The position numbers and the translations under genes were made by a program. DNA of 64,000 bases. Origin: a virus. Position 1 is the first letter of the stretch. Each line of letters starts with the position of its first letter. The stretch is from IMG/VR virus record IMGVR_UViG_3300013132_000047, positions 4,181 to 68,180 of that record; one strand, written 5' to 3'. Shown here piece by piece: positions 7,680-40,717 of this stretch. The notes beneath the pieces are model-generated. The model did not search any database. It saw only the letters and a program-made list of their open reading frames with translations, and had not been told where the DNA came from.

Positions 7680-7681
7680 AG

Positions 7682-23916: not shown

Positions 23917-24046
23917 GTATGGATGTGAAAGTATCGTTTTGTGTGTTTTAAGAAATGTTGAGTTACATTATTGGATTTTGTTTCATTTAAGCGCATACAT
24001 ATACAAATTGAACTCATTAACATTTCTGTGATTTAAAAAACGACAG

Positions 24047-24092
24047 AAAAAAGCGTGTTGGGGGTCGACCCGAAGGCCGACCCCCGTAGCAC
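24047..24092 (-). terminator. intrinsic terminator with UUCG loop
   Basis: GGGGGTCGGCC-TTCG-GGTCGACCCCC followed by CGCTTTTTT, after the 352-aa gene. Confidence 0.8.
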
Positions 24093-24101
24093 ACGCAGTG
24101 G

Positions 24102-25160
24102 TCAGAAAGGATCTTCGCCATCAGCGACGACAACGCCTGCGGTAGTGTCGATGACACTGTTTCCAGCAGGAGTGTCGGAGCGGGTGGTCCAGAAGTCCAG
24201 TTCGACTCCGCCGGCCAACTGAACGCGGCCGCACGGAACGTTGGTGGTGTACCATTCACCGTTGTTCTCCACCTTACCGTCAGGCTGGATGGTGACGCCA
24301 GGCTGGACGCCACCCCAGTTGCCAAGAGAACGGGTGAAGTTGTTGATCTCACGAGTGATGGTCTCGCGGCGGCTCTTGAGGTCCTCAAGGCCTTTGCCGG
24401 AAGCGACGCTCATTTGCTTGTCGGTGGCCTTGACCAAACCAGCGAACTTCAGGTAGTTCAGCAGGCTGGACATTGACGAGTCGACGAGGTCCACGAAACC
24501 GGTGTTCGCTCGGTTGAGCGTACGGTCCTGACGGTTCATCTCGAAACCTTCGACAGGAATGCCTTCGGAATGCTTGAATTGGGAGACGACTCGCAGATTG
24601 CGGTCGTCTTTCACTGCGCCAAGTTCCACGAATTGCTGGGCGGCGAGGTTGAACTGCTCTTCGCTGGTGCCCTGCTGCTCGAAGAACAGGCTCATTCCAC
24701 GGTAGGAATCGGCCTGCTCATCGTTGATGGCAGCGAACTTCATGTTCTTGTTGGCGAGATTCTGAAGGAACTCTTCACGCGAGTAGACCTTACCAGAATT
24801 TGCGATGGACACGTTGACCAGTTCTACCATCTTATCAACCAGGTTGATTTTGGTGTCGCCGTCCTTGATGAAGATGTCGAGTTTGACGTTGCTCATCGCA
24901 CCGCGAGCGGTGTAGATGGTGCGGTCGTCGCCCTGGCGCTTGCGGCTGATCAAGGTGAGGCTGGTGAGTCGACCTTCGCGGAAGATGACTTCAGCGGGGA
25001 ACTCCTGGCCAGCGATAGTGCCGACAAACTGCGTCGGGATATCGCGCTTGACAACCGTACGGGTACGGTTGATGAAACCGACCTCATCGGTCAAGACGTC
25101 GGCGAGAAGATCGCCAGTCAAGCCGAAATCGGCGAAGATGGATTCATTGGATAGGGACAT
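24102..25160 (-). CDS. 352-aa protein with an SSB-like acidic C-terminal tail (DGEDPF)
   Basis: Strong C/G third-position codon bias, GAGGT SD, own terminator, DPF terminus. Confidence 0.6.
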   Translation of the reverse strand: MSLSNESIFADFGLTGDLLADVLTDEVGFINRTRTVVKRDIPTQFVGTIAGQEFPAEVIFREGRLTSLTLISRKRQGDDRTIYTARGAMSNVKLDIFIKDGDTKINLVDKMVELVNVSIANSGKVYSREEFLQNLANKNMKFAAINDEQADSYRGMSLFFEQQGTSEEQFNLAAQQFVELGAVKDDRNLRVVSQFKHSEGIPVEGFEMNRQDRTLNRANTGFVDLVDSSMSSLLNYLKFAGLVKATDKQMSVASGKGLEDLKSRRETITREINNFTRSLGNWGGVQPGVTIQPDGKVENNGEWYTTNVPCGRVQLAGGVELDFWTTRSDTPAGNSVIDTTAGVVVADGEDPF

Positions 25161-25455
25161 AGTGGCTATTACCTCATTGTTTGTGTGGTTGTGTTGGATA
25201 GGGAAATCAGGAGACAGTTGCTATTGCGTGTCTCCCTCTTCCCCTTCTTCCCCTTCATAGGGATCTGTGTTTGTGGGATCGTCATAAGCAATGACAAGCC
25301 AGCACAAAAGAACTATTGGAATGATGATGATTATGAACGGCGAAATCACAAATTTCATGAGTAACACGAATAGGATTTCCATGACACCTCCAGTAAGGAT
25401 TGAACTTACTTGTTGGAATGGGTGAGCAGTTTTACAACATGCTCAGGTTTGGCGA

Positions 25456-25725
25456 TCAGTGGTTTCGGTCGCTGAGGTCGCTCAGTTCAAGAGCTCGACA
25501 CATCACTGCGAACATTGAGGGGTTCTCGATGAATTCGTCAATCGAGATGTGCGGTTTGAACCAGTTTGGAACTTTGTCAAAGTTCCAACCATCCTTGGCG
25601 TACCAAGCAAACCGACAATCTTTACACCAGCAGAGATCGTAGTCTCCGTGGAGGTTTGTGCTTGGTATTGCTTGACGGTCAAGATTTCGGTCGGAAACCC
25701 AACAGTCAACGTGATAGCGGATCAT
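25456..25725 (-). CDS. hypothetical Cys-containing protein
   Basis: GAAAGGA/AGGA SD; CWCKDC. Confidence 0.5.
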   Translation of the reverse strand: MIRYHVDCWVSDRNLDRQAIPSTNLHGDYDLCWCKDCRFAWYAKDGWNFDKVPNWFKPHISIDEFIENPSMFAVMCRALELSDLSDRNH

Positions 25726-25759
25726 CCTGCATCCTTTCTGTTGTTGGTTGAAACATGTG

Positions 25760-25832
<73 letters not shown>

Positions 25833-25895
25833 AAGCGGGGTGGGAGACGACACCCGACGTGTCTTATGAGGTCTCCCACCCCACATCTTTTACAC

Positions 25896-26159
25896 CTAGC
25901 TGCCCGACAATGCTTGAAGAAACGTTTCTTGCAGTTCGGTTAGGAACAAGGTAATTTCATCTTTGTTACCATGAAATACCAACGTGTAAGGAACGTTGAA
26001 TACATCTGTAGAGATGTTAGTGATTCGAAGTTCGTAGAACCATCCTTCAATTGGATCTGGTGTTTTTTCAGGTCGATGAACAGTGATCTCTGTTCTTTGA
26101 GAGGTTTCTAGCAGTCCGAAGGCATGAAGGTTGATCACTGTGACGTTTTGAATTAACAC
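25896..26159 (-). CDS. hypothetical protein
   Basis: AAGGAG SD, 87 aa. Confidence 0.55.
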   Translation of the reverse strand: MLIQNVTVINLHAFGLLETSQRTEITVHRPEKTPDPIEGWFYELRITNISTDVFNVPYTLVFHGNKDEITLFLTELQETFLQALSGS

Positions 26160-26660
26160 AATTTTTACTCCTTGAGTGTAGGGTTAAAATTTGTGTAGTT
26201 ACATGGTATTCTCCAAGTATTAAGCCAGCAGCGATTGTGGATCGAGCAGCATGTCTAGGCAGAGTCTTGAACAGTACCAGTCAAGGCCTACAGAGTAGGT
26301 CCCTGCTGGCAGATTGAATGATTCGTTTCGCGGGAAACTGACAGTGCTTCCACACGCTCTGCACTTAATAGTGATTTCACGTGGGTTCACGAATCTCCTT
26401 CTAAATCAATTCTCATTGTGTGACCAGTTGAGTAGTTGATGGTCGCGCCAATGATCAATGGGTTGTGAAAGATCTTACGCAACAATGCTTCAGAAGGTAA
26501 ACAGTCTGCAAGATCTTTAGTTTTGATGGAGATCTTTTCATTTTCAGTGTTGGTTCGTGTGATGGTAAACTTGCGAAGTTTCATGTCCATACCAACTTTA
26601 CTAGGAAGATGAGAGCCGATGGAATGAAGAACAGGAATGCTACAATCAAGTCGGCAATCA

Positions 26661-26876
26661 TTAGAACAACTCGCTTTTATCGCCGAAAACAATGTTCCAA
26701 CAGGTTGGATGAAAACCAGTCTTGATGGTTTCACGTTGATCTTCATCGAGATCAGGGAAAGCGTCTTGAATGTATGCGCCGGCCTTCCATGACTTGAAGG
26801 CGGCTCCGTCTACAATCATTGTGGACGGAGTTTTGCAGTGCGGACACTTTGGTGTGGTAAAGAGTGTCTTTTCCAT
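26661..26876 (-). CDS. small zinc-binding phage protein
   Basis: CPHC...IQDAFP.L..DQRE.I.TG.H..CW; start MEKT after AAAGGA. Confidence 0.65.
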   Translation of the reverse strand: MEKTLFTTPKCPHCKTPSTMIVDGAAFKSWKAGAYIQDAFPDLDEDQRETIKTGFHPTCWNIVFGDKSELF

Positions 26877-27402
26877 TGGGGTATCCTTTCCTGGTGGTGT
26901 GGGGCCCCTACCCCACATTTTATTGAATCACGCTATAGATCAAAAGATTATAGCGAGAACAAAAATACCAAAGCCGATAGCGGCAATAAGGTATTGCTTC
27001 CAGAACATGTTGTAGTACTTACGCTTGTATGATTGTACGAAGTGGTTTCGCGCAAACATGATTATCCTTTCTGTGTTTGAACATTTCGCGCCAAATAACA
27101 ATCTACTATTGTCTGTAGAGAGATAATAATAGAGAGAGGAATAAATACTTTATCCTCTTTGCTCAGATCCTTTTGAGTGTCTTTGTATAGGGTCCACCCA
27201 AAATTGTTCTGATATCTATCATTATCTTAACGTTAGTTGGCATGTTTATTCAGGTGTGTTGTATATATTCTCTCTCTCTGGAATATATATAGTTTTGATG
27301 TTGGGCGGGCCCCCAGCCACGTTGGCGGGGGATGTGACTGGGGACCCTGCCCTAGCATAGGAGCATGGCCGGCGGATGGCCATATTGCTCAACTATGCTA
27401 AG

Positions 27403-27475
27403 TGCACTAGGTAGGGATTGAACCTACGACCAAGCGATTATGAGTCGCCCGCTCTGACCACTGAGCTACTAGTGC
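27403..27475 (-). tRNA. tRNA-Ile2(CAU)
   Basis: GGCGACTCATAATCGCTTGGTC anticodon/variable region closely resembles ileX-type tRNAs. Confidence 0.85.
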
Positions 27476-27649
27476 TTGGTGAGGGTAAGTGGCGTCCCAA
27501 CTTACCCCCCAGATCATATGATCGGTATGATCCAGTTGCATGACTAATAGGGCTAGATGTTGGCCGGCATGCCAGCGACCAACATCGTTTAGAAGTCTTG
27601 AGGATCCATCTCTTACACGCCTTCGGTAAGAGCAAGAACTTCAACGCCA

Positions 27650-28160
27650 CCCCCCTAGCCCCCCGCTTCGCGGGGGGTAGGAGACGCTCTAGGCTTAAGG
27701 CGGTTTATACTGGCCTAGTCCAGTTGAAGAATCTTTTCGATGCTTTCAGGTGTGTAGCCTGCGGCATTCAACCTTTCATCGAGTTTGTCTTCGTAAGTCT
27801 TGACAAGATCCTCTGATGCTTCGAGGATTGTTTCTCCGTAAAGAACGGCAGTGTTTTCAACTACTGCTTTGATGTGGGCGTTGAGGCGTCGCACACATTC
27901 GATCATCAGAAGATGATCTGTTGTGTCGATTGCGATTTCTACAATGCCATTCATTTCATGAAAGCGTGCTGCGGTTGCCTTAGTCAAGGCGTACTTTGCT
28001 GTTTCCAATGTGGTCATTGGTCCCTCCCTGCGGTCGGTGTTTTTGCCCCCCCCCTGTATCCCCCCCCGCTTTCGCGGGGGGAGATCAGTCACCAGGGAGG
28101 ATGAACGATGTTCATCTCCTGTTGTTTTTTCTACCCCCCCAGCCCCCCGCTTCGCGGGGG
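27650..28160. repeat. three C-run + CCCCCGC-TT(T)C-GCGGGGG hairpin repeats
   Basis: Copies at about 27650-27677, 28046-28081 and 28134-28160. Confidence 0.8.
27715..28017 (-). CDS. hypothetical protein flanked by the GC-hairpin repeats
   Basis: GGGAGG SD then ATG 28017 (MTTLETAK). Confidence 0.6.
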   Translation of the reverse strand: MTTLETAKYALTKATAARFHEMNGIVEIAIDTTDHLLMIECVRRLNAHIKAVVENTAVLYGETILEASEDLVKTYEDKLDERLNAAGYTPESIEKILQLD

Positions 28161-28210
28161 TGGTATGAACAACAAATCTATGTTATTCACAGAGGAGTAG
28201 TATATACAAC

Positions 28211-28618
28211 TCAGGAGTTGAAGATTGGCAGTCCTTCCATCATCTTCTTCATTCGTGATGCGGCGATCGCATCCTGAGTGAATCCGATGGTGGACAGCAG
28301 AAGCAACATGGCGGGGAAGATAGCAACCCACCATGCTGAGATGAACGACATCGAGAACACGGCCATGAGACCGGCTGCGATGACGTACTGGGCGAGCAGC
28401 GCTGCAGAGATGATAAGCGCTGCGACGGTGATGACCTTGCCGGCGTGAACCATCTTGTGTCCACGGTTGGCGACGAAACGTCGGGTCTTACGTCCGGCGT
28501 TCTTGGTCACGTTCCAGGCAGCACGAAATGCTTCTCGTGCTTGGGACTGTTTGTCTGGAGCGATTTGCTCCAGTTCGATTTCGTGGATTGAATCGACGGG
28601 AATAGCCACTTTATACAA
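28211..28618 (-). CDS. membrane protein
   Basis: Two C-terminal hydrophobic segments; GGAGG SD. Confidence 0.6.
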   Translation of the reverse strand: MYKVAIPVDSIHEIELEQIAPDKQSQAREAFRAAWNVTKNAGRKTRRFVANRGHKMVHAGKVITVAALIISAALLAQYVIAAGLMAVFSMSFISAWWVAIFPAMLLLLSTIGFTQDAIAASRMKKMMEGLPIFNS

Positions 28619-29060
28619 CCTCCGGAGTTGGACGGTGGATTTTGCTTTTTACTGCTTCGAAGGTGCGGATGCACCAACGAAGAATGCGGAATGGCAATGT
28701 CAAGATCATGGCAATGCCAACCACGATTTTTGCGAGATCAGACATGGTCTGGTGGATTTGCTCGCGGTTTCTGTCATATGTTGCTTTGGCAGCCTTAGCC
28801 TTGGGTTTGCCGTTTCGTTCCCACGAATCGACTACACCATACATTGGCTGGCTGAGCACAGTTGACAAGATACCCGCAGAAGCAACAACCATGCCTGCTG
28901 CTGGGAACAACATCATGGCACCAATCGAGATGAGAATCGAGATGCCAAGATTCACCAAGACAAATCGCTTGGAGATTTCGGTGAGTCCAAGAGCCTTCAC
29001 GATCTTGAACTCAAAGTACAACTGACCTACGGTCAGGAGTACTAGGATGGTTAGGAACAT
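28611..29060 (-). CDS. membrane protein
   Basis: Several TM segments; AAGGAGG SD. Confidence 0.65.
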   Translation of the reverse strand: MFLTILVLLTVGQLYFEFKIVKALGLTEISKRFVLVNLGISILISIGAMMLFPAAGMVVASAGILSTVLSQPMYGVVDSWERNGKPKAKAAKATYDRNREQIHQTMSDLAKIVVGIAMILTLPFRILRWCIRTFEAVKSKIHRPTPEVV

Positions 29061-30070
29061 GTGTCCTCCTTAGTCATGGGGTTTCTCCCCCTCTTTTTTA
29101 CTTCACGTCGCGCATTATCAAATCATAATGATATGCGCAATAGGACGTTTCTGTACCCATGTTGAACGGTTTGCATTCGCAGGGTTCACTCAACTGGAAC
29201 GCGGACTTTTTAGAAGCAGTCCGCAGTTCCAGTTCCAGGAGTGTACACTCGGCACATTGACAGTCCGTCATTTTCATGACTTCTTTTTAGTGGCACGATG
29301 AATGACATAGGTCAACAACAACTTTGTCGCAATGAAGCCAATCAAAGCAATGAACGCGACATGTCGCATTTCGTCGATTTGATTTTGGCGGTACTGAGGA
29401 AGACTGCTCGGGTATTCCTTGAGTTCCATGACGACTCCTTTAGAAGCAAGAGTAGGATTCAAGCCACTCAAGAGCGGCATAATGATTAGGGAACTGCTCG
29501 ACGAGAGTAGGTGACTGGGCCGCATGAAACACAATCACAGCAATCCAATCATCATGATGGCGAAACATGTAACCATCACTTTCACCAAGAGACGCACTGA
29601 ACACTTTGTGTTCCTTCATCTGGAAATCAAGCATCATTGGACTCCTCCTTGGGACAGAAATCCGGCAACACATAAGTGCTGTCTGGAATGGTGTCATCCA
29701 ACATGTCAGCCAACCACTGATTCCAAGACTTGGAACACATGTACAACATTTTACCACCATGCAAGATGGGGTAGATCTTGTCCTCATCAACAGCAAAGTG
29801 GCAGACACTACAGTTTTGCTTCATGTTCTGCTTCACGAGATGATTCCTCCCAGGTGTGTTTGATGTAACGCGCGAAATCAGAAGATTTACGCACTACTTG
29901 TGATCCGGTTTCTGCGGCGATCTCAATAGCCTTGATAACAAAGCCGACAATGACCGCAAAGATAAAGAACAACAATGCTAACGCAGTCACTAAGGACCTC
30001 CGTGTGAGAGAAAGAAAGTTTTCCCGATAAATCGGGGGCAGGCACAAACTTCGTACCCACCCCCGACTTA

Positions 30071-30433
30071 TCACAGGTCGAACAGGGGATCCTGCTCGAT
30101 CTTGTCCGACTTGCTGCGCTGAGCGAGGGGCTTCCACACTCCCGACGCACGGATGACATGACGAGTGCGCTTGGCACCGGTCTCCTTGTCGGTCCACGAC
30201 TGCTGGACGAGACGACCCGACACCGAGATGAACGAGCCCTTCTTGAGCGACTCGGCCACGATGGTAGCCAGATCATCCCAGACCTGGACGGTGACCCAGG
30301 TGGTGTTACCCTGGGAACCGTCACGCAGGCGTGGGGTGTTCGCGAGGCTGAACGAACAGACAGGCCCGTTCTCGGTGATCCGCAGTTCGGGGTCAGCCCC
30401 GAGGTTGCCGGTGATCTCGATGGAGTTCATCAC
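30071..30433 (-). CDS. ssb: single-stranded DNA-binding protein
   Basis: ITGNLGADPELR, FSLA, W...A..L.KGS...V.GRL.Q.SW.DKETG.KR. Confidence 0.93.
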   Translation of the reverse strand: MMNSIEITGNLGADPELRITENGPVCSFSLANTPRLRDGSQGNTTWVTVQVWDDLATIVAESLKKGSFISVSGRLVQQSWTDKETGAKRTRHVIRASGVWKPLAQRSKSDKIEQDPLFDL

Positions 30434-30621
30434 TCACCGTCCTTGTCGGCCGAGATCTCAGGGATCTTGTTGGCCTGATCCGCCACGAACTTCGTCGAGA
30501 CCTTGGTGGCCTTGACCGTGGTGTTGACCGCCTTGACCGTGGTGGTCTTGGCGATACTGGTGGCGTCGGCCGCGAACTTACGACCGACCTTGACACTGAC
30601 GGACAACTTGTCCTTCAGCAT
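30430..30621 (-). CDS. small Lys/Thr-rich protein
   Basis: GGAGGTGA SD then ATG 30621. Confidence 0.55.
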   Translation of the reverse strand: MLKDKLSVSVKVGRKFAADATSIAKTTTVKAVNTTVKATKVSTKFVADQANKIPEISADKDGE

Positions 30622-30829
30622 AATGATCACCTCCAATAGGTGAAGTGTTGGTGGGAAAGCCTTTTGCTTCCCCTTCTTTAGTACGCACATGACGTACTGG
30701 AGGACACACCGACTATCCGCAGGGGGATACAAATAATTGATGTGCCCACCAGTACGGGCCGACTTTAGAAGCCGACCAGTACCGGGGAGGATGAATTTTT
30801 TGGTGTGAGAGAAACAGGAAACAGAAGAG

Positions 30830-30865
30830 AAATATGGGAGGCTGGGACATTCCCAACCCCCCATT
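30830..30865 (-). terminator. intrinsic terminator
   Basis: GGGGGGTTGGGA-ATG-TCCCAGCCTCCC followed by ATATTTCTCTT. Confidence 0.6.
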
Positions 30866-30868
30866 TTC

Positions 30869-31267
30869 TCAGTACTTCGGAGGACGCGACCACTCCACCT
30901 TGGATGGCTCCAGGGTGATGGTACGACCGTTGCGCAACTTGAACGCGACACCGTCATGGGAGACGATGTGAGGCGTGTAGAGATGACCCCTGTAGTACAG
31001 CAGAGGCTCGTCATCCTGGTCATGATCGGCGCAGACGAACCGCTTGCCCTGACCTTTGGGCTGGAACTCGAAGTTCCGGCATTTGGTGCTGGCACACCAG
31101 ACCTTCAGCATGCCGGCCGGCGTAGCGATCACCTCGGACACCACTCGCGGTTGGACAACCGGAGCAGGAATTGTGGGCTTGGAAGGAGCGACCAAACGAT
31201 TGGCCGCAACCAACATGCCCTTGCTGATCAACTCAGCACGGTACTCCTCGATGGACTTACCCATCAC
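30869..31267 (-). CDS. hypothetical protein (Cys/His)
   Basis: GGGAGG SD; 132 aa. Confidence 0.6.
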   Translation of the reverse strand: MMGKSIEEYRAELISKGMLVAANRLVAPSKPTIPAPVVQPRVVSEVIATPAGMLKVWCASTKCRNFEFQPKGQGKRFVCADHDQDDEPLLYYRGHLYTPHIVSHDGVAFKLRNGRTITLEPSKVEWSRPPKY

Positions 31268-31645
31268 ACAACCTCCCTGGGTCGTGGGGCTCCGACCATC
31301 GGAACCCCCTCCTTTACTGCTGTACTACACGGGATCCGAATGATCAGTCCCGCTTGGCCGGCACAAACCAACCGTCCAACTGACGACGCTCGTTTGCGTC
31401 GACCCACTCCTCGTACATTTTCACGAGGATCGACTGCGCTGCGCTGTTGCGACAGCGGCACGGCTGACTATCGTGGTGGCAGTAGTCAGCCGGAAGCCCG
31501 CAACCACCACACCAGTGGTCAACCGGAAGCCGGCAACGGACACAATAATACGTGCCGTCAACACCGACCTCAACCGGGAACTGATGATTGCCCACAACAA
31601 CCTCCCCTGTCAAGAGGGTCCCGACCATCGGAACCCCCACCTTTA
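31268..31645 (-). repeat. duplicated leader: TAAAGG + hairpin (CCGA-TGG-TCGG) + GGAGGTTGT SD
   Basis: Copies at about 31268-31316 and 31597-31645. Confidence 0.7.
31344..31594 (-). CDS. small Cys-rich protein
   Basis: GTG start after GGGGAGG; CVRC, CGGC and CHH motifs. Confidence 0.5.
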
Positions 31646-31766
31646 GAAGCCCAACACACGACGACCATTGAGTCGCCGGCCTGTGAACTCGGAAGCCCGC
31701 AGTAGGCCCCGCCAGGAAGCGGCCGCGCCGAATCAGCCGCGAAAGCTGGGCTTGGGCAGGCCGCCT

Positions 31767-32186
31767 TTAGAAGTGGTGAAGGTCGCACCGGCATCGATCG
31801 CCGTAATGATCACGACGCTCCTCCAACTTGAGTTGCCAGTAACGAGTGATCTCATCAGGCGTCATACCGGACTCCACCTGGCCTGAGATCTCTGCCAGGA
31901 TCTTGGCGTGGCATGTTCCGGTGCCATCCGGGTTGACACACCAGCACTTGAGTGTCTTGCCCACCAGCGCGCCGGCAAACAATTGTCGACGCAAACTCTC
32001 GGCACGGTCGTCTACACCGTTGATCAACCAATCGGTGTAGTGGAAGACTGCCTCCTTGGCTGAGGGAAGGTTCTTGTGGACACCTTTCCCCCAGCTCAAG
32101 TTGGACCAGTCGTTACCCCATGGGCCACCTCGGCCCACGTTGACCCCGTTCGTGGGGTTACTGTGGTGCATGTTGACAACTCTCAT
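31767..32186 (-). CDS. DUF4326 family protein
   Basis: RVVN......VGRGGPWGN...L.GKTL.CWC.......CHA.IL. Confidence 0.85.
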   Translation of the reverse strand: MRVVNMHHSNPTNGVNVGRGGPWGNDWSNLSWGKGVHKNLPSAKEAVFHYTDWLINGVDDRAESLRRQLFAGALVGKTLKCWCVNPDGTGTCHAKILAEISGQVESGMTPDEITRYWQLKLEERRDHYGDRCRCDLHHF

Positions 32187-32743
32187 GGGTTTGCCTCCTT
32201 GACGGCAGTGAATCCGGACATGCCCTTCTTGGACACAGTCCAGAGGTTGATTGCCCAGCGATCAGCACTTGCATGCTTGACGCTGTGCGGGTTCTTGCAG
32301 TTGAAGAAGAACACCTCACCACCAGTCAGGTGGTAGGTTTCTGTCGGGGCAGATTCATCCTGATTCCGAATCCATCGGAAACCCGGATGGCACCGCTGGT
32401 ACTCCCACGTGCACTCACCCAGGTTGATGCCCATGGCCATTGCATTGGAGTACCCGGCGTCACGGTGGGGAAGGATATGTCCCCCCTTGGACACCAGGCC
32501 CAAATCTGGCGTGAACCCGTGCCGTGCAGACACCCTGGTCAGGTATGACCAAAGCCTCGGGTCGCGAACACCCGGCTGCCAGGCGTAGGACCCGAGCGGT
32601 GCTGCGTATTGCAGCCATGAACGCATGCGTCCAACGGCGTACCTCGACACGTCTGGTGTCAAAGTTGGTTCAATCACCTCGTCCAGGTGATTCGTGATGG
32701 TCTTGATGGTCTCTTGCGAGATCATCTGTACAATCTTGAACAT
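32183..32743 (-). CDS. 2OG-Fe(II) oxygenase (AlkB-like)
   Basis: ILPHRD...INLG...PHSV......RWAINLW (HxD...H...R). Confidence 0.75.
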   Translation of the reverse strand: MFKIVQMISQETIKTITNHLDEVIEPTLTPDVSRYAVGRMRSWLQYAAPLGSYAWQPGVRDPRLWSYLTRVSARHGFTPDLGLVSKGGHILPHRDAGYSNAMAMGINLGECTWEYQRCHPGFRWIRNQDESAPTETYHLTGGEVFFFNCKNPHSVKHASADRWAINLWTVSKKGMSGFTAVKEANP

Positions 32744-32744
32744 G

Positions 32745-33269
32745 TTACGACTCCTTCTTGTTGTTGAGGATCTTGTAGGGCTTGCCGGAATCCTGCACCA
32801 GCTTGATGCAGTTGCGGGTTCCGGGTGAATCTGACTGCCAGATCAGGAATGCATTGGCCGTGAAGACCATGTACTCATTCCTGATGAAGTTGACATGCTT
32901 ACCGTCTCGGTAAAGACCCTGCATGCCGGGTGTGACCTTGTCAACGTACGTGACGTACTTGGCTGCCTTGACCATCTCGTTAAATCTGGCGAGACGGTTC
33001 TGTCCGGTAGCAGACTTCTGGCCCCAGTAGTATGAGCCGTAGCTCTTACTGGGAATTGCACAGTATAGGGGGATCTCAAGATCCAGTGCAACTGTTGCCA
33101 GAAGATTGTCGAAACCTTCTGCCATGCCCGACATGATGAGCAGGTCTTCACCATAACTACCGCGAAGACGGATCAGCTCTTCAGCGACAATCGAATATGC
33201 CGCCTTCTTGTCATCGACGCTTGCGGTTTGCAAGGATCGAGGACCGGTTCCTGCTACAATGAAACTCAT
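32745..33269 (-). CDS. SLOG/YspA (DUF1273-like) nucleotide-binding protein
   Basis: AGTGPR, SGMAEGFD, RNEYMV, SPGTRNCI; AAGGAGG SD before ATG 33269. Confidence 0.8.
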   Translation of the reverse strand: MSFIVAGTGPRSLQTASVDDKKAAYSIVAEELIRLRGSYGEDLLIMSGMAEGFDNLLATVALDLEIPLYCAIPSKSYGSYYWGQKSATGQNRLARFNEMVKAAKYVTYVDKVTPGMQGLYRDGKHVNFIRNEYMVFTANAFLIWQSDSPGTRNCIKLVQDSGKPYKILNNKKES

Positions 33270-33745
33270 TGTTCCTCCTTGGTTGCACATTCGCACTCCG
33301 AAGTGAATCCGGAGTACCTCTTGAAGTCCTGAGCTGTGCGCTCTGAACCACACTTTCTACACTTCAGTGAAAACTTCTCGCGAAACGCAGACTCGTAGAT
33401 CTCATCTGCGTAAGTGAGATTGATTCCGCCCTCACTACCGAAGTTCACGTAGGGGTAGTACCGCACCGCTCGCATCATTATAGCGAACGAGTAAAGCTCG
33501 TACAATCCTTCGCGAACCTTGAAGTAATCACTTGAATAGTGAACACTCCACTCGAAGCTTTCGCAAGCCTCAGCTCCCTTCCCATTCAGAAGAAAGTAGT
33601 CGTCCCCGAACGTGTAGTCCAGGAGATTTGCGTCTTCCCTCCCCAGTGGGGAAGAAAAGATGGTCTTGACGTCACTCATGAGGAGATTGAAAGCAACCTG
33701 CTCATTGGCGACGGTGCCTCTGCTGTAGTGGGTATGAACGCCCAT
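33266..33745 (-). CDS. hypothetical protein with C-terminal zinc ribbon
   Basis: AGGAGG SD; CRKC...CEC. Confidence 0.6.
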   Translation of the reverse strand: MGVHTHYSRGTVANEQVAFNLLMSDVKTIFSSPLGREDANLLDYTFGDDYFLLNGKGAEACESFEWSVHYSSDYFKVREGLYELYSFAIMMRAVRYYPYVNFGSEGGINLTYADEIYESAFREKFSLKCRKCGSERTAQDFKRYSGFTSECECATKEEQ

Positions 33746-33806
33746 TGGGCCTCCTAGGATAGTTGGGTTGGGGTTGGGCAGTTTAGTGACATGCCCAGGT
33801 CAGGTA

Positions 33807-36398
33807 CTACGAACGGCAGCGCTTGCAGACGCGACCGTTGATTCGGAACGCTTCCTTCTGGTCCCGGTTTGCCACGAGGTACGTGGTGTTGCAAGACGCA
33901 CAGGTGAGGTTCCATGTACGCCGATCCATGTACACATGGCGAGCGTTTCCATCGTTGTCGATCGTCAGATCGGCCGCGATGTAGCCAAAGTTGGCCAACG
34001 CATCCATCAGGTACCGGAACGGACCAACGTCACCACCGTTTCCATCGGCTTGGGAGACGGTGATGAAGTTGTCATTCATCAGGCCAGTTGTCTTCACCGG
34101 CATCTCTTGAGCGGCCACGTACAGAGCCAGGACCAGCATGTCACGGTCGTCACCTTCACGAGCGAGGATGGCGTCCATGATGCCGGAACGGATCCGGATG
34201 TAGGCCTCCTTGGTGAGTGTTCGGGGCTTGACAGGAGGGCGTCCCACCCTACCACCTTCGGTCCACTCGTTCAAGGCATGCTGATGATCCTCGTTCATCT
34301 GCTCGTATTCCGGATGGAACCGACGACGGAAGTCGAGGACCAATTGCCTGGCCTCCACCATGAACTCACTGCCCCTGGGGAACAACGCTCTGATGGATTC
34401 ATCCACCAGACCGTGATTCTCCTCGGCGAAGACGTTGATCCTCTGATCATACTTCCCGATGGCATCTGTCATGGTCTTGGTCATCATGGACAGCTTGTCG
34501 TCGTCCACGAAGTTGACCTGATGATCCGGGTTCTCTTCCAAGAACTCCTTGAGCACCTTCCCGAACCCGTAGATACGAGTGGTGTTCCAGTAGGCCTTGG
34601 AGATTGGAAGCCCAGACGCGAGGACTTCACGGACCAGATTGGCCGAGTAGTTCAACACGAACTGAACGTCATCCGGATCGGACGAATCTACCACATCGGA
34701 CAGCATGCCCGGCATGGTAGATGGAAGGGCCTTGAACACCCAGCGATACAAGAACAAGCTGTTCACGTATGCGCCGAGAGCAGCATTCTGCCCTGACAGT
34801 CCACGGATCTGTCCCATGACATGGTCACGAGTCAGTGCCTGGATGTCGGTATTCGCAGGCTTGCCCTGACTGGGGAGCCCGGTGAAGGTGACCAAACCCT
34901 CACGGATGAGCTGACCCAGTGGCTTGGGCATCCGACCCAGATCCGACTTGGCAGACATCTGGAACGCGAACGTTTCAGTGCCCTTCGAGTCGATGTGGCG
35001 GATACCCCTGTTGCTCGTACGGAACATCCCATACGAGTCCATTGGCATGCGCCACACCAGGATCCGGTGGTTATTGTGTGAATCCCGCACGGACATCACG
35101 GTGAAATGGTCATCACCATCATGACCGCCGAAATCGACTGAATGATCGATCCAGTCGGAATCGGACAGGAACCAGACATCAGCTCCCGGATGATACTCGA
35201 TGAAACCCTTCTTGGGGGTCTTCACCTTGTATCCAGCCAGACGCAACATCGAGACCGACTTGACGGTCTTGAAGTGAGCATTCGGCAGAGGGAACCGAGG
35301 ATGGTTATTGGCATCGACCATGCTGGTACGGTGATTGGTTGCCACCGACTTGAGCATGGACGGTGATTTCCGGTAGTCGAAGCCACGTGCTGCCGCTTCG
35401 ATCACGGAATGACGGTTGAGCACCGTGTTGCCAGGGATGCCCCAATCCTTCAGCTGCTTCCACAGGAGGGATTCGACATCCACGAAACGTTCGGTGAGTT
35501 CACCGTTGAGGACCTGCTGGTACGACTGCTCCAGATGGTCATCAAGCACCTTGCTCAGCATGTCTTGGGTGAACAGCTGAGTGGTACCCCGTTCGACGGC
35601 ATGGAACCATGCGAGAGCCTGGATGTTGCTGTAGGCCTCGTTCTTGCCGCCATCTGGCTCTGCGATGATAAACCTCTTGCCGCCTTCAGTCACCTTGATG
35701 GCTGACTTGACATTGGCACGAGAGGTGTACACCATCACACCACCGGGGAGTTCACCACGAGCACGGATTGCATTGCCCTTGATGAACCCAATCTCGGTCC
35801 ACAAGCGTACGTTCATCTCACGCACGTTGTTGACCTTGCGGGTCCTGCGGTCCGTCTTGAAGGGATCCTTGTTCCCATCGACGGAGGCGGTGAGCATGTC
35901 CCAGATGTCGCCGGACAGCACGAACATGCCATCCAGGATCATCTCGACCTCGTCATCGGTGTAGGACGACAGGTCTTCATGGGTGAATGCCCGCACATCA
36001 TCAACCTCAAGAATATGAACAGTGACGTCCATATCATCAGGAAGGTAGAGGCCGCAGGTGGTCGGACGGTAAGCCTGCTTCTCGTACTTACCGTGGTTCT
36101 TGCCATTCGTGACAGTGATTCCTGCCACGGTGAATGGTGCCAACCATCCATCTACTCCGGCGTAGCTGACATACACGATGTCAGACTTGTCGACGTAGAC
36201 GTGGTTGACACGCTCGTCAGTGGCAAACTTGAGGGCCACATCGAGCTCCTCGGGAGTCCGAGGGTGAGGGAGCACACCAATGGTGTACCCCACGGCCCCG
36301 ACGAGGTCCGAGATGAAATCAGCGACGACGCGCTTCATTCCTCCCAGATCAGGCCAGGTCCGGGTTGCCCGACGTTCGGGCTTTTCCGGAGAATCCAT
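33807..36398 (-). CDS. single-subunit two-barrel RNA polymerase (YonO/QDE-1-RdRP-like), divergent
   Basis: Ordered motifs LDGMFVLS, VR..T..GFIKG, GGHDGDD, WRMP, LGAYVN, SDVVD, and a C-terminal CxxC...CxxC ribbon. Confidence 0.75.
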   Translation of the reverse strand: MDSPEKPERRATRTWPDLGGMKRVVADFISDLVGAVGYTIGVLPHPRTPEELDVALKFATDERVNHVYVDKSDIVYVSYAGVDGWLAPFTVAGITVTNGKNHGKYEKQAYRPTTCGLYLPDDMDVTVHILEVDDVRAFTHEDLSSYTDDEVEMILDGMFVLSGDIWDMLTASVDGNKDPFKTDRRTRKVNNVREMNVRLWTEIGFIKGNAIRARGELPGGVMVYTSRANVKSAIKVTEGGKRFIIAEPDGGKNEAYSNIQALAWFHAVERGTTQLFTQDMLSKVLDDHLEQSYQQVLNGELTERFVDVESLLWKQLKDWGIPGNTVLNRHSVIEAAARGFDYRKSPSMLKSVATNHRTSMVDANNHPRFPLPNAHFKTVKSVSMLRLAGYKVKTPKKGFIEYHPGADVWFLSDSDWIDHSVDFGGHDGDDHFTVMSVRDSHNNHRILVWRMPMDSYGMFRTSNRGIRHIDSKGTETFAFQMSAKSDLGRMPKPLGQLIREGLVTFTGLPSQGKPANTDIQALTRDHVMGQIRGLSGQNAALGAYVNSLFLYRWVFKALPSTMPGMLSDVVDSSDPDDVQFVLNYSANLVREVLASGLPISKAYWNTTRIYGFGKVLKEFLEENPDHQVNFVDDDKLSMMTKTMTDAIGKYDQRINVFAEENHGLVDESIRALFPRGSEFMVEARQLVLDFRRRFHPEYEQMNEDHQHALNEWTEGGRVGRPPVKPRTLTKEAYIRIRSGIMDAILAREGDDRDMLVLALYVAAQEMPVKTTGLMNDNFITVSQADGNGGDVGPFRYLMDALANFGYIAADLTIDNDGNARHVYMDRRTWNLTCASCNTTYLVANRDQKEAFRINGRVCKRCRS

Positions 36399-36468
36399 TT
36401 CATCCTCCCAGATGATGGATTGGGTGAACTACTGTTTAATCGCGCGTAGTTCGTGACGCGGCTATGAA

Positions 36469-36974
36469 CAAATTTGTATACCGCATGTAACTCTGCGGTG
36501 TAAAGCACCTAGCTCAGGTCACCAGGGTACGGGGTATTCCCCCGTGCAATGGTGTCCCATCCGATGGGTATGCACAGGTCCATGGACCAAGCGCCGTAGC
36601 ACTCGGTCTGGATCTTGATGATGACGTAGTCACCCGCCATCATGGACCTGAGCTCTTGTGGTGGCTGATGATCGGGGTTCATCCCGTTCATCAGGGTGAA
36701 CGCGTATTCTCGGATGTCGATCTCTCCCTCTTCGAGCGGGAAATCGAAGGTGTACACTTTCGTGTACGGGATTTCTTCGAGGTCAAAGGCAGTCATTTCG
36801 CCCGGTTTGAGTGTCATGGAATGGAGGATCTGTTCCGCACAGAGAACGTCGACCTCCGAATACTGCCGATAGTATATATCGACGATGATGCGTGTAGACA
36901 TATCATCCTCCTAGATGATAGTGTTGGATGTTGGCGCCACGATCAAATTTGTATACCGCATGTGGCTCTGCGGT
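36469..36974 (-). repeat. 31-bp duplicated motif (ACCGCA-loop-TGCGGT-ATACAAATTTG)
   Basis: 36469-36499 and 36944-36974, 29/31 identical; both intergenic. Confidence 0.85.
36509..36901 (-). CDS. YodL-like domain protein
   Basis: AF..MN.......LRSMMAGDYV resembles the RSlSvgDvv motif. Confidence 0.5.
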   Translation of the reverse strand: MSTRIIVDIYYRQYSEVDVLCAEQILHSMTLKPGEMTAFDLEEIPYTKVYTFDFPLEEGEIDIREYAFTLMNGMNPDHQPPQELRSMMAGDYVIIKIQTECYGAWSMDLCIPIGWDTIARGNTPYPGDLS

Positions 36975-36988
36975 TGTGCTCGGAACTA

Positions 36989-37195
36989 TCAGTCGTAATC
37001 CCTCGGATCACGAGCGTGGTAGCCCGACTCCAGGGAGTCCCGGTAGTCGTGCAGTGCGTCCTGCTCCTCTTCGTGACGACGAAGAGCGATCTCCTCGTCA
37101 TACGAGTGGTAGACGCAGTACTTCTGACCTGCAGGGACTTCATCCCCACAGATTTCCTTGTAGGGTTCACTGAACCCGTACCCACAGATGCTCAT
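36989..37195 (-). CDS. small acidic Cys-containing protein
   Basis: AAGGAGG SD then ATG (MSICGYG). Confidence 0.55.
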   Translation of the reverse strand: MSICGYGFSEPYKEICGDEVPAGQKYCVYHSYDEEIALRRHEEEQDALHDYRDSLESGYHARDPRDYD

Positions 37196-37281
37196 TGCAT
37201 CCTCCTTGCAGTGCAATGGTATTTCCACGCACAAGGAAAGGGACCGATCAAAGGACCAATCCCAAACCTTCTGCCCAGAAA

Positions 37282-37497
37282 TCAGAAATCCTCAGTGAGC
37301 TCCGAGATTTCAGCCTTCCAAGCACGCTTCTCTCGCGTGCGCAACTGCTGCCGCTCTGCCTGGCGCTTGCGGGTCTGAGCCCTCCTGTTGTGGGGGCCGG
37401 AAGCTCCGCTGAGAGTCCAGCAGCAGGGACACGGCTTGTTGTTCTTGTACAGCATGTGACCATCCAGGGCCACCTGAGCCAACATCATCTTGGCCAT
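37282..37497 (-). CDS. small Arg-rich protein (CPCC + RRAQTRKRQAERQQLRTREKRAW)
   Basis: GGGAGG SD then ATG 37497; the longer track ORF overlaps a structured RNA. Confidence 0.6.
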   Translation of the reverse strand: MAKMMLAQVALDGHMLYKNNKPCPCCWTLSGASGPHNRRAQTRKRQAERQQLRTREKRAWKAEISELTEDF

Positions 37498-37522
37498 ATA
37501 GTCATCCTCCCAGACGACAGTA

Positions 37523-37603
37523 AGTGGTTTTTTCCGGACCACTCTGAAACCGGAGTTCCCCGCGAAGGAATCGAACCTTCGAACTTCCACACCAGTGCGG
37601 GGA
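37523..37603 (-). ncRNA. armless tRNA-like minihelix + H-type pseudoknot (copy 1)
   Basis: TCCCCGC...GAAGG TTCGATT CCTTC GCGGGGA, then TCCGG/CCGGA and AGTGGT/ACCACT. Confidence 0.75.
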
Positions 37604-37608
37604 TGAGA

Positions 37609-37863
37609 TCAGAAGTCGAACTTCAATTGCTCGACTTCTTCATACGTATCAAGGTTGATGAGCGTGTCACCAACCTGGGCCCACCTGCCCGAAGCCTTTT
37701 GGCTCCTGGACTGGTCGAGTCCGGCCAACAAACCGGACAGACCAATCTTGTAGTGGACAGTACACAGGCGGTACACGAACCCATTGCGGGTAATGGTACG
37801 TCCTGAGGTCACTCCGTTCTTGCAGGAGTGACCCTTGTGTGTCTTGGCGGAGCACAGCATCAC
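37609..37863 (-). CDS. small zinc-finger-like protein
   Basis: CSAKT.KG..CKN...CTVH. Confidence 0.55.
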   Translation of the reverse strand: MMLCSAKTHKGHSCKNGVTSGRTITRNGFVYRLCTVHYKIGLSGLLAGLDQSRSQKASGRWAQVGDTLINLDTYEEVEQLKFDF

Positions 37864-38045
37864 AAGCCCCCGTTGCTACGGAGCCACTCGTTCACCTGCT
37901 CGGGATGATCTCGCATCCACTCCAGGTGCTCGTGTGACCACTTGGTGGTGATGTCGTTCCACACGATTGCCAATGCAATCATGGTCACGATCATCAGTGC
38001 CACCCCAAAGACTTGCCATGGGGTGAACTTTCCGTTGTCTTCCAT
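37860..38045 (-). CDS. small single-pass membrane protein
   Basis: AAAGGAGGTG SD then MEDNGK; one TM segment. Confidence 0.6.
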   Translation of the reverse strand: MEDNGKFTPWQVFGVALMIVTMIALAIVWNDITTKWSHEHLEWMRDHPEQVNEWLRSNGGL

Positions 38046-38203
38046 CACTTCACCTCCTTTCTGTGCTCGGTGCGACGGCACTTTTCGCACGGATCATTCG
38101 CCATCTCAATGGCGATGAGTTGGTTCGACCCCGCGTACTGCTCCAGGGCCCTTAGCTCACCCCTGCTGAAGGGGTGCCCACACCTGTGCTGGTGTGTGAT
38201 CAT
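38045..38203 (-). CDS. small CGH...CxxC protein (52 aa, not in track)
   Basis: GGGAGG SD; MITHQHRCGH...PCEKC. Confidence 0.55.
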   Translation of the reverse strand: MITHQHRCGHPFSRGELRALEQYAGSNQLIAIEMANDPCEKCRRTEHRKEVK

Positions 38204-38228
38204 GTCATCCTCCCAGATGCATGAATTT

Positions 38229-38304
38229 GAGTGGTTTTATCCGGACCACTCTGTAACCGGAGTTCCCCGCAGAGGAATCGAACCTCTGTACAACCATTCG
38301 GGGA
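38229..38304 (-). ncRNA. armless tRNA-like minihelix + H-type pseudoknot (copy 2)
   Basis: TCCCCG...CAGAGG TTCGATT CCTCTG CGGGGA, then the same pseudoknot; compensatory T-stem changes versus copy 1. Confidence 0.75.
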
Positions 38305-38382
38305 TCCAGGTTTAACCCTTAGCCTGGATGGGTGGTTGGGTTGCTCAACGCTCGGTGAGTTAACCCCAGATTGCCCAGTACG

Positions 38383-38712
38383 TCATCGCAGCCACTTGCA
38401 GGCTTGCTTGTACTTCAGGGCGAACTCGGCGTACTTGCTCAAGTACCCGTTGCCAACGAACGTCATGACCTTCTCGTGCTTGTGGAACGGGCCCGGGCGC
38501 TCATCCGTCACGGTGACGATGATCGGCTCATCAAGGGAGCCGTTCTCGAATCCCAGTTCCACCTCCCAGATGCGGCCCGACTCCCACCGCGTCTCGAAGT
38601 AGATCCCGTACCACTGCCCGTCCATCCTCTGGGGGAATCCCTCGATCTGGATGTTGACCGCTGGGATCATGAGGTTGAGCACCTTCACGTACCTACCAAC
38701 CTGTTCGAACAC
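38383..38712 (-). CDS. hypothetical protein (first gene of the GC-rich arm)
   Basis: AAGGAG SD, GTG start. Confidence 0.6.
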   Translation of the reverse strand: MFEQVGRYVKVLNLMIPAVNIQIEGFPQRMDGQWYGIYFETRWESGRIWEVELGFENGSLDEPIIVTVTDERPGPFHKHEKVMTFVGNGYLSKYAEFALKYKQACKWLR

Positions 38713-38799
38713 TGCATTCTCCTTAATGTTTCTTGTGCCCCAGTTAGGACACTCTTCAGCCTGTTAATTCAGGGACAGTGAGGGAGAGCACTGGTAAGT

Positions 38800-39394
38800 G
38801 GATACCCCAGGGTGGGGGGTGGGCTCGATATTTGTCTCAAGCACACAACAATATCCAATAGATACCCCTAAAATTTTTTTCTTTTTATATACCTCTATGA
38901 GTTTTATATATGTTTATACATCAAACGTACAGTGTGTTGTCTGTAAAATATTTTTCTCCCTATTTTTATCTCTATAAGGTATATAAACGTCTATACCCAT
39001 GGTGCGTGAATGGGTAAGGCCGGCGAAATAAACACTCAAAGTCACTTCCTCACACACTAAAGTGCCAAGAAAGACGAAAAACATACAAGGAAAGTTGAAT
39101 AAGTCCTTAAAATGTCATAGAATAGCCCGCAGAAAAGACAAATAGAGACAAAACTATCTAAACAAACACTAAAAACTACTCTAAGAAAACAAAAGTCCCC
39201 AGAAGAGCACAAAGAAGCTCTTCATACAGTGCCTACAATCATCTAGAAAGATTGAAGATTGTAAAAAGACATCTCTTCTCAGGGTTGGGCTGACCATTTT
39301 TTCAAAAATAGATTCCTCATACCTTCTGTGAAGTTGTTGGCATGACAAAAAAAACATAAAAATTCAATATTGTATCTTAAATTTAAGGGAAAAT
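38800..39394. other. composition junction and AT-rich non-coding block; candidate genome terminus/packaging region
   Basis: CCCCAGGGTGGGGGGTGGG then AAAATTTTTT and A-rich sequence; divergent genes on either side. Confidence 0.45.
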
Positions 39395-40039
39395 ATGTCT
39401 AAATCTGTGAGAAATATTATTTTTTGCTCTGATTTGTGGAAACCAGGTCATTTTTCGGTTTCTATGGAAAGAAAATTTCAACGTAGTGGTTTCAAAGTGT
39501 CGCATTTGGCTTATCCAACCTATGAGAAGGATCTTTCTATAGCAAAAATCGCTTCGATGTCGATGAAATGGGCTGAACAGATCCGCGATAGGTCGTCTCA
39601 TTGCACCTTTATTGGTCATGGTGTTGGTGGCAGGATCGGTTTGGAAATGTTGGCGCTAAATCCGGTCATTTTTGACTCTTTCGTGTCGATAGCTACACCT
39701 TATGGGCCGAGTCCTCTCGTCGCGTCTCTGAGCGAAATAGGGGCCATTCGTGACATTCTAGCGGCAGTGAGTCCATTGTCGACTGAACTAGCAAAATCTG
39801 CGGTTGTACCAGACTTCATCGCTATACCGGCGCTGTCAATTTCGGCTCAATTTGATTCGATGATCGCCAAAGAAGCCACCGCTTCGGTCATAGAAAATCA
39901 CACGACAATCTATCATTCAACTCACAGCTCAATCCTGTTGAAAGAACGAACATTCCTTGAAATCTTGGGTTGGCTTAATTACGCCGTATTTGGCCCGTAC
40001 AGCTTCGGCGGCCACGATATAGATGACGTGGTAGCCTGA
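39395..40039 (+). CDS. alpha/beta-hydrolase fold protein, nucleophile apparently lost
   Basis: FIGHGVGG (vs GHSxGG), SIATPYG, STHSSIL. Confidence 0.7.
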   Translation: MSKSVRNIIFCSDLWKPGHFSVSMERKFQRSGFKVSHLAYPTYEKDLSIAKIASMSMKWAEQIRDRSSHCTFIGHGVGGRIGLEMLALNPVIFDSFVSIATPYGPSPLVASLSEIGAIRDILAAVSPLSTELAKSAVVPDFIAIPALSISAQFDSMIAKEATASVIENHTTIYHSTHSSILLKERTFLEILGWLNYAVFGPYSFGGHDIDDVVA

Positions 40040-40501: not shown

Positions 40502-40717
40502 TCAGCCCTCAGTAGCCTTAGGCCTACCTGGCCCCTTCTTCGCGGGGTCCTTCGCAACCCCAGCAGTGGTCTTCTTCGCAGCAGTCTTCTTAGGCGCAGC
40601 TTTCGGAGCGGCACTAGGAGCCTCAGCAACAGGCGCTGGCTCAGCAGCAACCTCAACCTTAGCAGTAGTGTCACCAGAAACACCTACACCAAGAAGCCTC
40701 TTCAATCTATTAAACAT
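40502..40717 (-). CDS. histone-H1-like Lys/Ala-rich protein with an AT-hook-like motif
   Basis: PKAAPKKTAAKK...KKGPGRPK. Confidence 0.6.
   Translation of the reverse strand: MFNRLKRLLGVGVSGDTTAKVEVAAEPAPVAEAPSAAPKAAPKKTAAKKTTAGVAKDPAKKGPGRPKATEG

Follow-up and report, generated by a model that had tools for sequence, protein, structure and literature searches.

A 64,000-nucleotide stretch of viral DNA (positions 4,181 to 68,180 of the IMG/VR record IMGVR_UViG_3300013132_000047; hereafter, the window) carries on its minus strand an open reading frame (ORF; 33807-36398, ATG start) which encodes a protein of 863 amino acids. Judged from its predicted structure, this protein is probably a single-chain two-barrel nucleotide polymerase of the type represented by QDE-1, RDR, YonO and P23-45 gp64, and most likely serves the phage as its non-virion DNA-dependent RNA polymerase. 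The ORF is a single uninterrupted frame, and the plus-strand reading of the same interval is broken by many stops. Its active site would depart in two ways from that of described two-barrel polymerases: the metal-binding loop is one residue shorter (D-x-D-D) throughout the family, and an R-x-P...G-E hairpin comes after this loop, to whose aspartates it would be brought by the strand pair 431-438/444-450, so that the catalytic barrel appears to be built in a different strand order.

Predicted fold and homologue family

An exhaustive search of 1.84 billion representatives retrieved 94 relatives of the protein at E ≤ 1e-3, mostly of 780-1000 amino acids (32 of them at E ≤ 1e-10 and 11 at E ≤ 1e-30). 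Leaving out 12 short fragments (79-621 amino acids), we aligned the other 82 with the protein itself and six close relatives, which gave 89 rows with identities down to ~16%. It was the replacement of the 21 close homologues by this wider alignment that made a usable AlphaFold2 model possible: the former led to a predicted local distance difference test score (pLDDT) of 53 and an unusable model, the latter to a pLDDT of 92.7 and a predicted TM-score (pTM) of 0.90. With this model, Foldseek found 19 PDB matches at E ≤ 0.001, headed by 7y7q_B (E 4.7e-8, prob 1.00), and the best 15 of the 19 were every one QDE-1, RDR2 or P74-26 gp62, the next matches being P23-45 gp64, crAss gp66 and gp96. Upon VIA re-alignment, ZmRDR2 reached Z 13.4 over 577 aligned residues, QDE-1 Z ~10.4 over ~600, gp64 Z 9.5 over 407, gp96 Z 6.9 and crAss gp66 Z 5.4, with unrelated rows at Z ≤ 3.5. 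A VIA search of the whole PDB (48,161 chains), made independently of Foldseek, gave Z ≥ 8 for three chains only: ZmRDR2 (13.3), QDE-1 (10.3) and P74 gp62 (9.4). Isolated domains of the double-psi beta-barrel (DPBB) type (p97-N and designed DPBBs) and beta-type subunits (plastid, phiKZ and vaccinia) aligned with residues 94-250 of the model, the isolated domains with 115-248 upon VIA re-alignment, and so delimit the first barrel, and the second barrel was recognised only within whole-enzyme matches. BFVD provided two good matches (TM 0.78/0.80 and 0.65/0.51), both from uncultured Caudovirales and labelled 'uncharacterized proteins'. A right-hand, T7-like fold was not seen, the model being two-barrelled and PF00940 remaining unmatched by the protein. 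With only two-barrel RNA polymerases at the top of the Foldseek and VIA rankings, the two-barrel RNA polymerase fold proposed by the first-pass annotation is supported at the level of the model, which also shows a connector and a bridge-helix-like helix.

At the sequence level, searches with the 863-residue protein retrieved no Pfam family at E ≤ 1, no PHROGs family, a chance match only among PDB sequences (E 1.6) and nothing by tblastn against 50,697 phage records. A word-index search recovered 20 relatives (823-882 amino acids, 42-86% identity), all of them metagenomic and either unnamed or labelled 'hypothetical protein'. Used as a profile, the 89-row alignment gained just one further sequence in the word-index search and found nothing relevant among PDB sequences. 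Ten distant members of the family had no Pfam match and no credible PHROG match, the ESM Atlas returned no usable match, and the close-relative alignment found no relative when scanned over 185,579 species genomes. The family profile also found nothing in SPbeta, 0305phi8-36, MTATph1, ME3 and WH1, an empty answer which weighs little. Neither Pfam nor PHROGs nor the PDB contains the family, and no cultured phage gave a match either, which agrees with its initial description as a possibly new one. In the literature we found no description of a DxDD two-barrel polymerase, of a relocated R-x-P or of this family; the alignments which PMC10770324 provides for 23 RNA polymerase families (Supplementary Data 3) stood outside this comparison and could contain it. 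A single-chain two-barrel phage RNA polymerase is a kind of enzyme already known, and the DxDD/R-x-P family would be a variant within that kind.

The best structural matches, RDR2 (7W82, 7W84, 7EU1) and QDE-1 (2J7N, 7Y7P-T), resemble the modelled protein in being single chains in which barrel A, connector, barrel B, bridge helix and a trigger-like segment follow one another in this order. The metal loop of RDR-type enzymes is spelled DYDGD or DLDGD, unlike the D-x-D-D found here. Their family, PF05183 (RdRP), is not matched by the 863-residue protein, which is further set apart from both by its C-terminal zinc ribbon and its phage origin. The connector of QDE-1 spans residues 793-919 (preprint 10.1101/2020.03.07.982082).

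Among phage enzymes, YonO from the Bacillus prophage SPbeta has been shown experimentally to be a DNA-dependent RNA polymerase (PMC5467207). It is likewise a single chain (839 amino acids, against 863 here) with the same series of barrel-A motifs (DG..., R...KG), and its family has an invariant C-terminal CxxC...CxxC analogous to the ribbon of our protein. However, no sequence homology between the two is detectable (hhalign probability 1.9 with the single sequence and 0.4 with a 20-row YonO family), the relatives of YonO match PF05183 whereas this family does not, and in YonO an RSP precedes FDNDGD, which is the canonical order and spelling and the opposite of the order seen here. A YonO-like gene is carried by 0305phi8-36 (PMC7824862), to whose terminase that of the present phage is distantly related. 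The Thermus phage enzymes P23-45 gp64 and P74-26 gp62 (8F72, 8F5M) match the model at Z 9.4-9.5 over 389-407 residues, and P23-45 gp96 (8H2N), a virion polymerase fused to the tape measure, is the structural match at Z 6.9. In P23-45, the non-virion gp64 and the virion gp96 form a pair of DNA-dependent enzymes with a DxDxD loop (DFDGD in gp96) (PMC10770324); this DxDxD sets the P23-45 enzymes apart from the family, with which they have no sequence similarity. The crAss-like phi14:2 gp66 (6VR4), with a two-barrel core and a QDE-1-like connector, is a weak match (Z 4.9-5.4, Foldseek E 8.8e-3); it is a virion-packaged protein of 2166 amino acids with a DFDID motif and a cleft-blocking domain (preprint 10.1101/2020.03.07.982082).

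Proposed active-site residues and order of the catalytic barrel

All the motifs that had been read from the sequence at the outset (LDGMFVLS, NVR...GFIKG, GGHDGDD, ILVWRMP, LGAYVN, SDVVD and the C-terminal cysteines) lie at the residues first assigned to them (Table 1). In the 21 close homologues (42-86% identity) every listed motif residue is invariant, including the four cysteines. The first-pass annotation had made its polymerase reading depend on two barrels and on conserved aspartates. Both barrels are modelled, and across the wider family D427 and D429 belong, with K207, R450 and P452, to the only fully conserved columns (89/89), D430 being kept in 88/89 (1 N). D156 and G157 are kept in the 88/88 rows aligned there, D571 and G542 in 87/87, and N546 in 81/87. 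The C-terminal cysteines, covered only by the subset of sequences whose C-termini align, are kept in ~35-40 rows out of the 46-63 that have a residue at those positions. To judge from the alignments, this conservation of the motifs is far beyond chance.

Eight residues have been described as invariant in all two-barrel RNA polymerases, corresponding in QDE-1 to D709, R738, K743, R962, P964, D1007, D1009 and D1011, the invariant barrel-A Asp (D709) being D837 in Rpb2 (PMC2919709). R962-x-P964 constitutes the 'Pro-gate loop' of the second QDE-1 barrel (DPBB2), whose Arg reads ribose 2'-OH groups, while L1082, N1087 and R1091 belong to the bridge helix and D1116 is a trigger-loop residue (PMC9508822). 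The invariant set of the family would map onto these residues one for one, with D156 as the equivalent of D709, K207 of K743, D427, D429 and D430 of D1007, D1009 and D1011, and R450 and P452 of R962 and P964. L1082...N1087 would correspond to L541-G542...N546, and D1116 perhaps to D571, an equivalence suggested by spacing only (the trigger-loop Asp follows the bridge-helix Leu after 30 residues here, vs 34 in QDE-1). In the mechanism that we propose, D156 of the first barrel and D427, D429 and D430 of the second would hold two Mg ions, K207 (plus R198 where present) would bind the phosphates of the nucleoside triphosphate, the Pro-gate loop that senses the ribose would be R450-x-P452, helix 538-555 (L541, G542, N546) would serve as bridge helix, and a trigger-loop-like segment would contain D571.

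The metal loop contains three carboxylates at a spacing other than DxDxD. An alignment-free scan found D-x-D-D/N in 89/89 sequences (88 with D in last position, one with N), so that the D-x-D-D spelling first noticed in a single protein is family-wide; among the 88 loops found by regular expression, one (DGDDD) can also be read as D-x-D-x-D. Position 425, the canonical site of the first Asp, is occupied by G (84), T (4) or S (1) and never by Asp. The observation that R-x-P follows the metal loop extends to the family too, since the same alignment-free approach located it downstream in 89/89. A regular expression placed 88 of them 15-39 residues past the first Asp (+22 to +24 in most), and in the one sequence outside it (P0112) the downstream R-x-P was checked by eye. 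Around this motif the 89-row consensus has the signature R-[SN]-P-[NS]-x-x-G-E. Of 88 sequences scored, 51 have an upstream R-x-P, 45-70 residues before the loop, and 37 lack it; in the R368 column, 59 of 89 rows have Arg and 10 have Lys.

A canonical double-psi barrel has five strands before the Asp loop and one after it, in the strand order 1-5-2-4-3-6. DSSP resolved the second barrel of the AlphaFold2 model into strands 374-381, 399-403 and 408-411, helix 413-418, the Asp loop, and strands 431-438, 444-450 and 457-460, that is, three strands before the loop and three after it. Between the end of the connector and the Asp loop there are 59 residues here (368 to 427) vs 88 in QDE-1 (919 to 1007), and the bridge-helix Leu follows the loop after 111 (430 to 541) vs 71 (1011 to 1082). 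With ~29 residues fewer before the loop and ~40 more after it, roughly one hairpin's worth of chain would have shifted across it. R-x-P itself stands 45 residues before the first Asp in QDE-1 and 20 residues after the last Asp here. Strands 431-438 and 444-450, joined by just five residues, must form a hairpin in the model, which would bring R450-P452 back beside D430. Strand order, spacing and hairpin together lead us to think it fairly likely that the Pro-gate hairpin has been relocated from before the metal loop to after it; the re-ordering is based on strand order, spacing and conservation, and we infer the spatial equivalence of R450/P452 to the Pro-gate.

A second family member and alternative readings

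An orthologue of the 863-residue protein, 81% identical, is encoded on a 190,033-bp IMG/VR contig (90% complete; G001, its polymerase locus L002). A family-profile search of this genome detected a second member, an ORF of 1441 amino acids (G001:C1:38758-43083; L018:8759-13084), with FDG..., NVR...KG, GGPDFDD and KRTPSALGE in the family order (hhalign probability 98.2), without the upstream R-x-P Arg and with a hydrophobic C-terminal segment. It lies between an ORF of 2212 amino acids and one of 1491 (endolysin-type domain), just past head-protein-like genes. By analogy, it is a candidate virion-packaged polymerase, and the two diverged paralogues of G001, one in the virion module and one early-type, would mirror the virion/non-virion pair of P23-45; gp96, though, is fused to the tape measure, whereas the long paralogue is a separate gene. 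In the source record of the window, profile search found only the 863-residue copy; being a fragment (68 kb, 32% complete), this record says nothing on a second paralogue. The same G001 genome had no match to PF00940, PF00623 or PF00562, and hence no T7-like, beta or beta-prime polymerase gene that Pfam could detect; control genomes gave matches for PF00623 and PF00562 and none for PF00940. Template and product specificity, the roles of individual residues and the division of labour with the 1441-residue paralogue are what we infer from these comparisons.

The strand order allows a different solution, with the same fold and activity, in which the barrel is canonical or circularly permuted, R368-x-P370 is the true Pro-gate, and R450-x-P452 is specific to the family and located at the end of the beta1-equivalent strand. 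R368-F-P-L-P occupies the canonical place, ~59 residues before the Asp loop and directly ahead of the 8-residue strand 374-381, P372 and P370 are kept in 76/89 and 69/89 rows, and the strand lengths suit the order 3-4-5-6-1-2. Moreover, in the double-psi barrel the strand that follows the Asp loop is flanked by two others, and the hairpin could be placed on either flank. We regard this solution as possible but doubtful. The downstream R-[SN]-P-x-x-x-G-E resembles both RSPHLYREH of YonO and the R-N-P...G-D motif of RDR enzymes, and the upstream Arg is absent in 37/88 sequences and in the 1441-residue paralogue, although the Pro-gate Arg and Pro are counted among the eight two-barrel invariants (PMC2919709). 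The permuted barrel of the first-pass annotation has indirect support only, from the strand count, the spacing compared with QDE-1 and the weaker conservation of the upstream R-x-P; that annotation had overlooked R368-F-P370, and a plain circular permutation fits the strand lengths as well.

Another function for the same fold is suggested by the best structural matches, RDR2 (Z 13.4) and QDE-1 (Z ~10.4), both RNA-dependent in vivo: the protein might be an RNA-dependent RNA polymerase producing double-stranded or small RNAs, for example in regulation or counter-defence, and not transcribe phage DNA. We consider this unlikely, since QDE-1 robustly transcribes single-stranded DNA (preprint 10.1101/2020.03.07.982082), the characterised phage members of the clade (YonO, gp64, gp96 and crAss gp66) are described as DNA-dependent, Pfam (PF00623, PF00562) revealed no other RNA polymerase gene in G001, and the second G001 paralogue, in the virion module, would match the scheme of P23-45. 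Still less probable would be a replication enzyme, either a primase or a PolD-like two-barrel DNA polymerase. PolD is described as sharing the two-barrel core and no primase was identified in the window, but PolD DP2 does not appear among the structural matches listed from Foldseek and VIA, a separate 1034-residue gene of the window matches a DNA-polymerase exonuclease PHROG, and the Arg of R-x-P, invariant in the family, is the reader of ribose 2'-OH in QDE-1 (PMC9508822). Finally, the deviation of the metal loop from the DxDxD signature called invariant (PMC2919709) could point to a polymerase-like protein which is inactive and serves in structure or regulation. However, 88-89/89 sequences, down to ~16% identity, keep the three Asp, that of barrel A, the Lys and R-x-P, the pattern expected of a working active site, and we find inactivity hardly credible.

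Several points weigh against a DNA-dependent RNA polymerase with a relocated hairpin. The assignment as a polymerase rests wholly on a structural prediction, the model has low global TM-scores (0.26-0.39) against solved structures, and neither Pfam, nor the profile search of PDB sequences, nor hhalign with YonO gave a sequence-level link between the family and any known polymerase. R198 is Arg in 62/89 rows and Thr in 21/89; one of the eight 'invariant' residues, a basic one, is therefore variable in this family, and R738 is, as far as the alignment can tell, the weak point of the mapping onto QDE-1, since its counterpart is Arg in just those 62 rows. K104 (kept in 88/88) or K231 (88/89) might supply the second basic charge of the first barrel. 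On the model, a circular permutation 3-4-5-6-1-2 with R368-x-P370 as Pro-gate would fit the strand lengths at least as well as the relocation. In addition, the closest solved structures, RDR2 and QDE-1, are RNA-templated in vivo, so that the fold does not settle a DNA-dependent activity, and because PF00940 stayed silent in all the controls its absence from G001 shows little.

Genomic setting and meaning of the family

The source record (68,180 bp, estimated 32% complete) is that of an uncultured phage from a lake, and the sequencing runs listed as carrying the sequence are lake and freshwater DNA metagenomes, none of them RNA; two of these may be its source. Besides the polymerase gene, the window contains a large terminase, a DNA-polymerase-like gene, recA, a peptide deformylase, a transfer-messenger RNA (tmRNA) and five tRNAs (Thr, Leu, Arg, Lys and Met). 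The predicted tag of the tmRNA (7681-8071) is unusually long, with 23 residues, and ends in ALV. Among cultured phages, the terminases nearest to that of the window belong to Moorella phage MTATph1 (36% identity) and to the Bacillus jumbo phage 0305phi8-36 group (28-31%). A minus-strand ORF of 868 amino acids (16423-19029) has several CxxC pairs and no Pfam or PHROG match; a match probability of 0.1 ruled it out as a paralogue of the polymerase. The minus-strand arm begins at ~46.6 kb with recA and the polymerase gene lies ~10 kb and more than 12 ORFs into it, a position unlike that of T7 gene 1, which makes the initial idea that it was among the first genes of the arm a weak one.

The polymerase gene is the first large gene within a GC-rich block (22000-40000; 45-58% G+C vs 35-41% for the rest of the genome). 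G+C content at third codon positions is 0.63-0.73 in this gene and several neighbours (24102-25160, 28211-28618 and 31767-33353) and 0.23-0.39 in flanking genes. The block is not an assembly chimera, as the 81%-identical relative has a matching one (L002 7000-22000); the loci of distant family members lack a comparable contrast. Within it lie G/C-rich mini-hairpins, CCCCCCGCTTCGCGGGGGG (27649-27680, 28062-28083, 28133-28164 and 40527-40547). At two loci of distant members (L009 4161-8415 and L010 4163-8418), the same pair of genes (~363 and ~164 amino acids, with no PHROG match) precedes the polymerase gene.

Upstream of the start codon, a 39-nt repeat is found at 36461-36499 and again at 36936-36974 (minus strand), in which ATACAAATTTG comes after a hairpin (ACCGCA...TGCGGT); the second copy precedes a gene of 130 amino acids ahead of the polymerase gene. 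Three copies of the hairpin motif occur at the same places upstream of the orthologue in L002, and no further ones were found in the 68-kb record or in the 190-kb G001, so that in each of the two genomes it marks just the 2-3 genes of the polymerase locus. It neither coincides with a sigma-70-like promoter nor resembles one. It may, speculatively, be a promoter or operator which switches on the polymerase operon. Closer to the gene, GGAGG precedes the ATG by a few bases and is part of a short palindrome which recurs before four neighbouring genes. The five copies of this 16-nt element (36400-36415, 36903-36918, 37502-37517, 38205-38220 and 38558-38573) each place a Shine-Dalgarno sequence directly before a minus-strand start codon. 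A 67-nt direct repeat (37523-37589 and 38230-38296, 87% identity) contains a T-arm-like segment, GGAATCGAACC, without a tRNA call by ARAGORN.

Table 1 Features of the 863-residue protein and of the DNA upstream of its gene (window coordinates; barrels, connector, helices and strands as predicted in the AlphaFold2 model).
Feature	Residues	Coordinates	Strand	Details
Hairpin and motif		36461..36499	minus	TGCGGTATACAAATTTG; 71-87 nt upstream of the start
Palindromic Shine-Dalgarno element		36400..36415	minus	Directly before the start codon
First double-psi barrel, DPBB-A	115-249	35652..36056	minus	Beta-subunit-like; D156-G157, N196/R198...K207-G208
LDGMFVLS				First barrel; contains D156
NVR...GFIKG				First barrel; contains N196, R198, K207
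Helical connector between barrels	250-367	35298..35651	minus	Helices 259-266, 278-297, 305-317, 324-337, 346-358
Second barrel, DPBB-B	368-460	35019..35297	minus	Beta-prime-like; DSSP of the model
Less conserved R-x-P	368-370	35289..35297	minus	R368-F-P370; canonical upstream place
Metal-binding loop	424-430	35109..35129	minus	G424-G425-H-D427-G-D429-D430 (GGHDGDD); reads D-x-D-D
Invariant R-x-P, candidate Pro-gate loop	450-452	35043..35051	minus	ILVWRMP; R450-M-P452
Bridge-helix-like helix	538-555	34734..34787	minus	L541-G542...N546 (LGAYVN, 541-546)
Candidate trigger-loop Asp	567-571	34686..34700	minus	S567-D-V-V-D571; putative equivalent of QDE-1 D1116
Four short strands	810-842			Near the zinc ribbon (model)
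C-terminal zinc ribbon	829-862	33813..33914	minus	CxxC...CxxC; C833, C836, C858, C861

The full picture would be that of a phage RNA polymerase family found only in metagenomes, with a four-residue D-x-D-D loop, a Pro-gate hairpin placed after the catalytic loop, and early-gene and virion-module copies which would provide host-independent transcription from injection on; we see the chances that it holds in its entirety as evenly balanced. If true, it would represent a re-wired catalytic barrel without a counterpart among described polymerases. In two-barrel polymerases across the whole range from bacteria to RNA silencing, a DxDxD loop and an R-x-P that precedes it have been treated as invariant (PMC2919709, PMC9508822). 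A family of at least 94 sequence clusters which keeps the residues and alters their spacing and order along the chain would be an exception to this 'universal' signature. It would show the extent to which an ancient active site can be re-threaded and would bear on models of double-psi barrel evolution. The compact enzyme of 863 amino acids, with its conserved candidate promoter hairpin, should also be an easy target for biochemistry. Pfam, PHROGs and PDB sequence searches all miss the family, so that present annotation gives its carrier phages no RNA polymerase.

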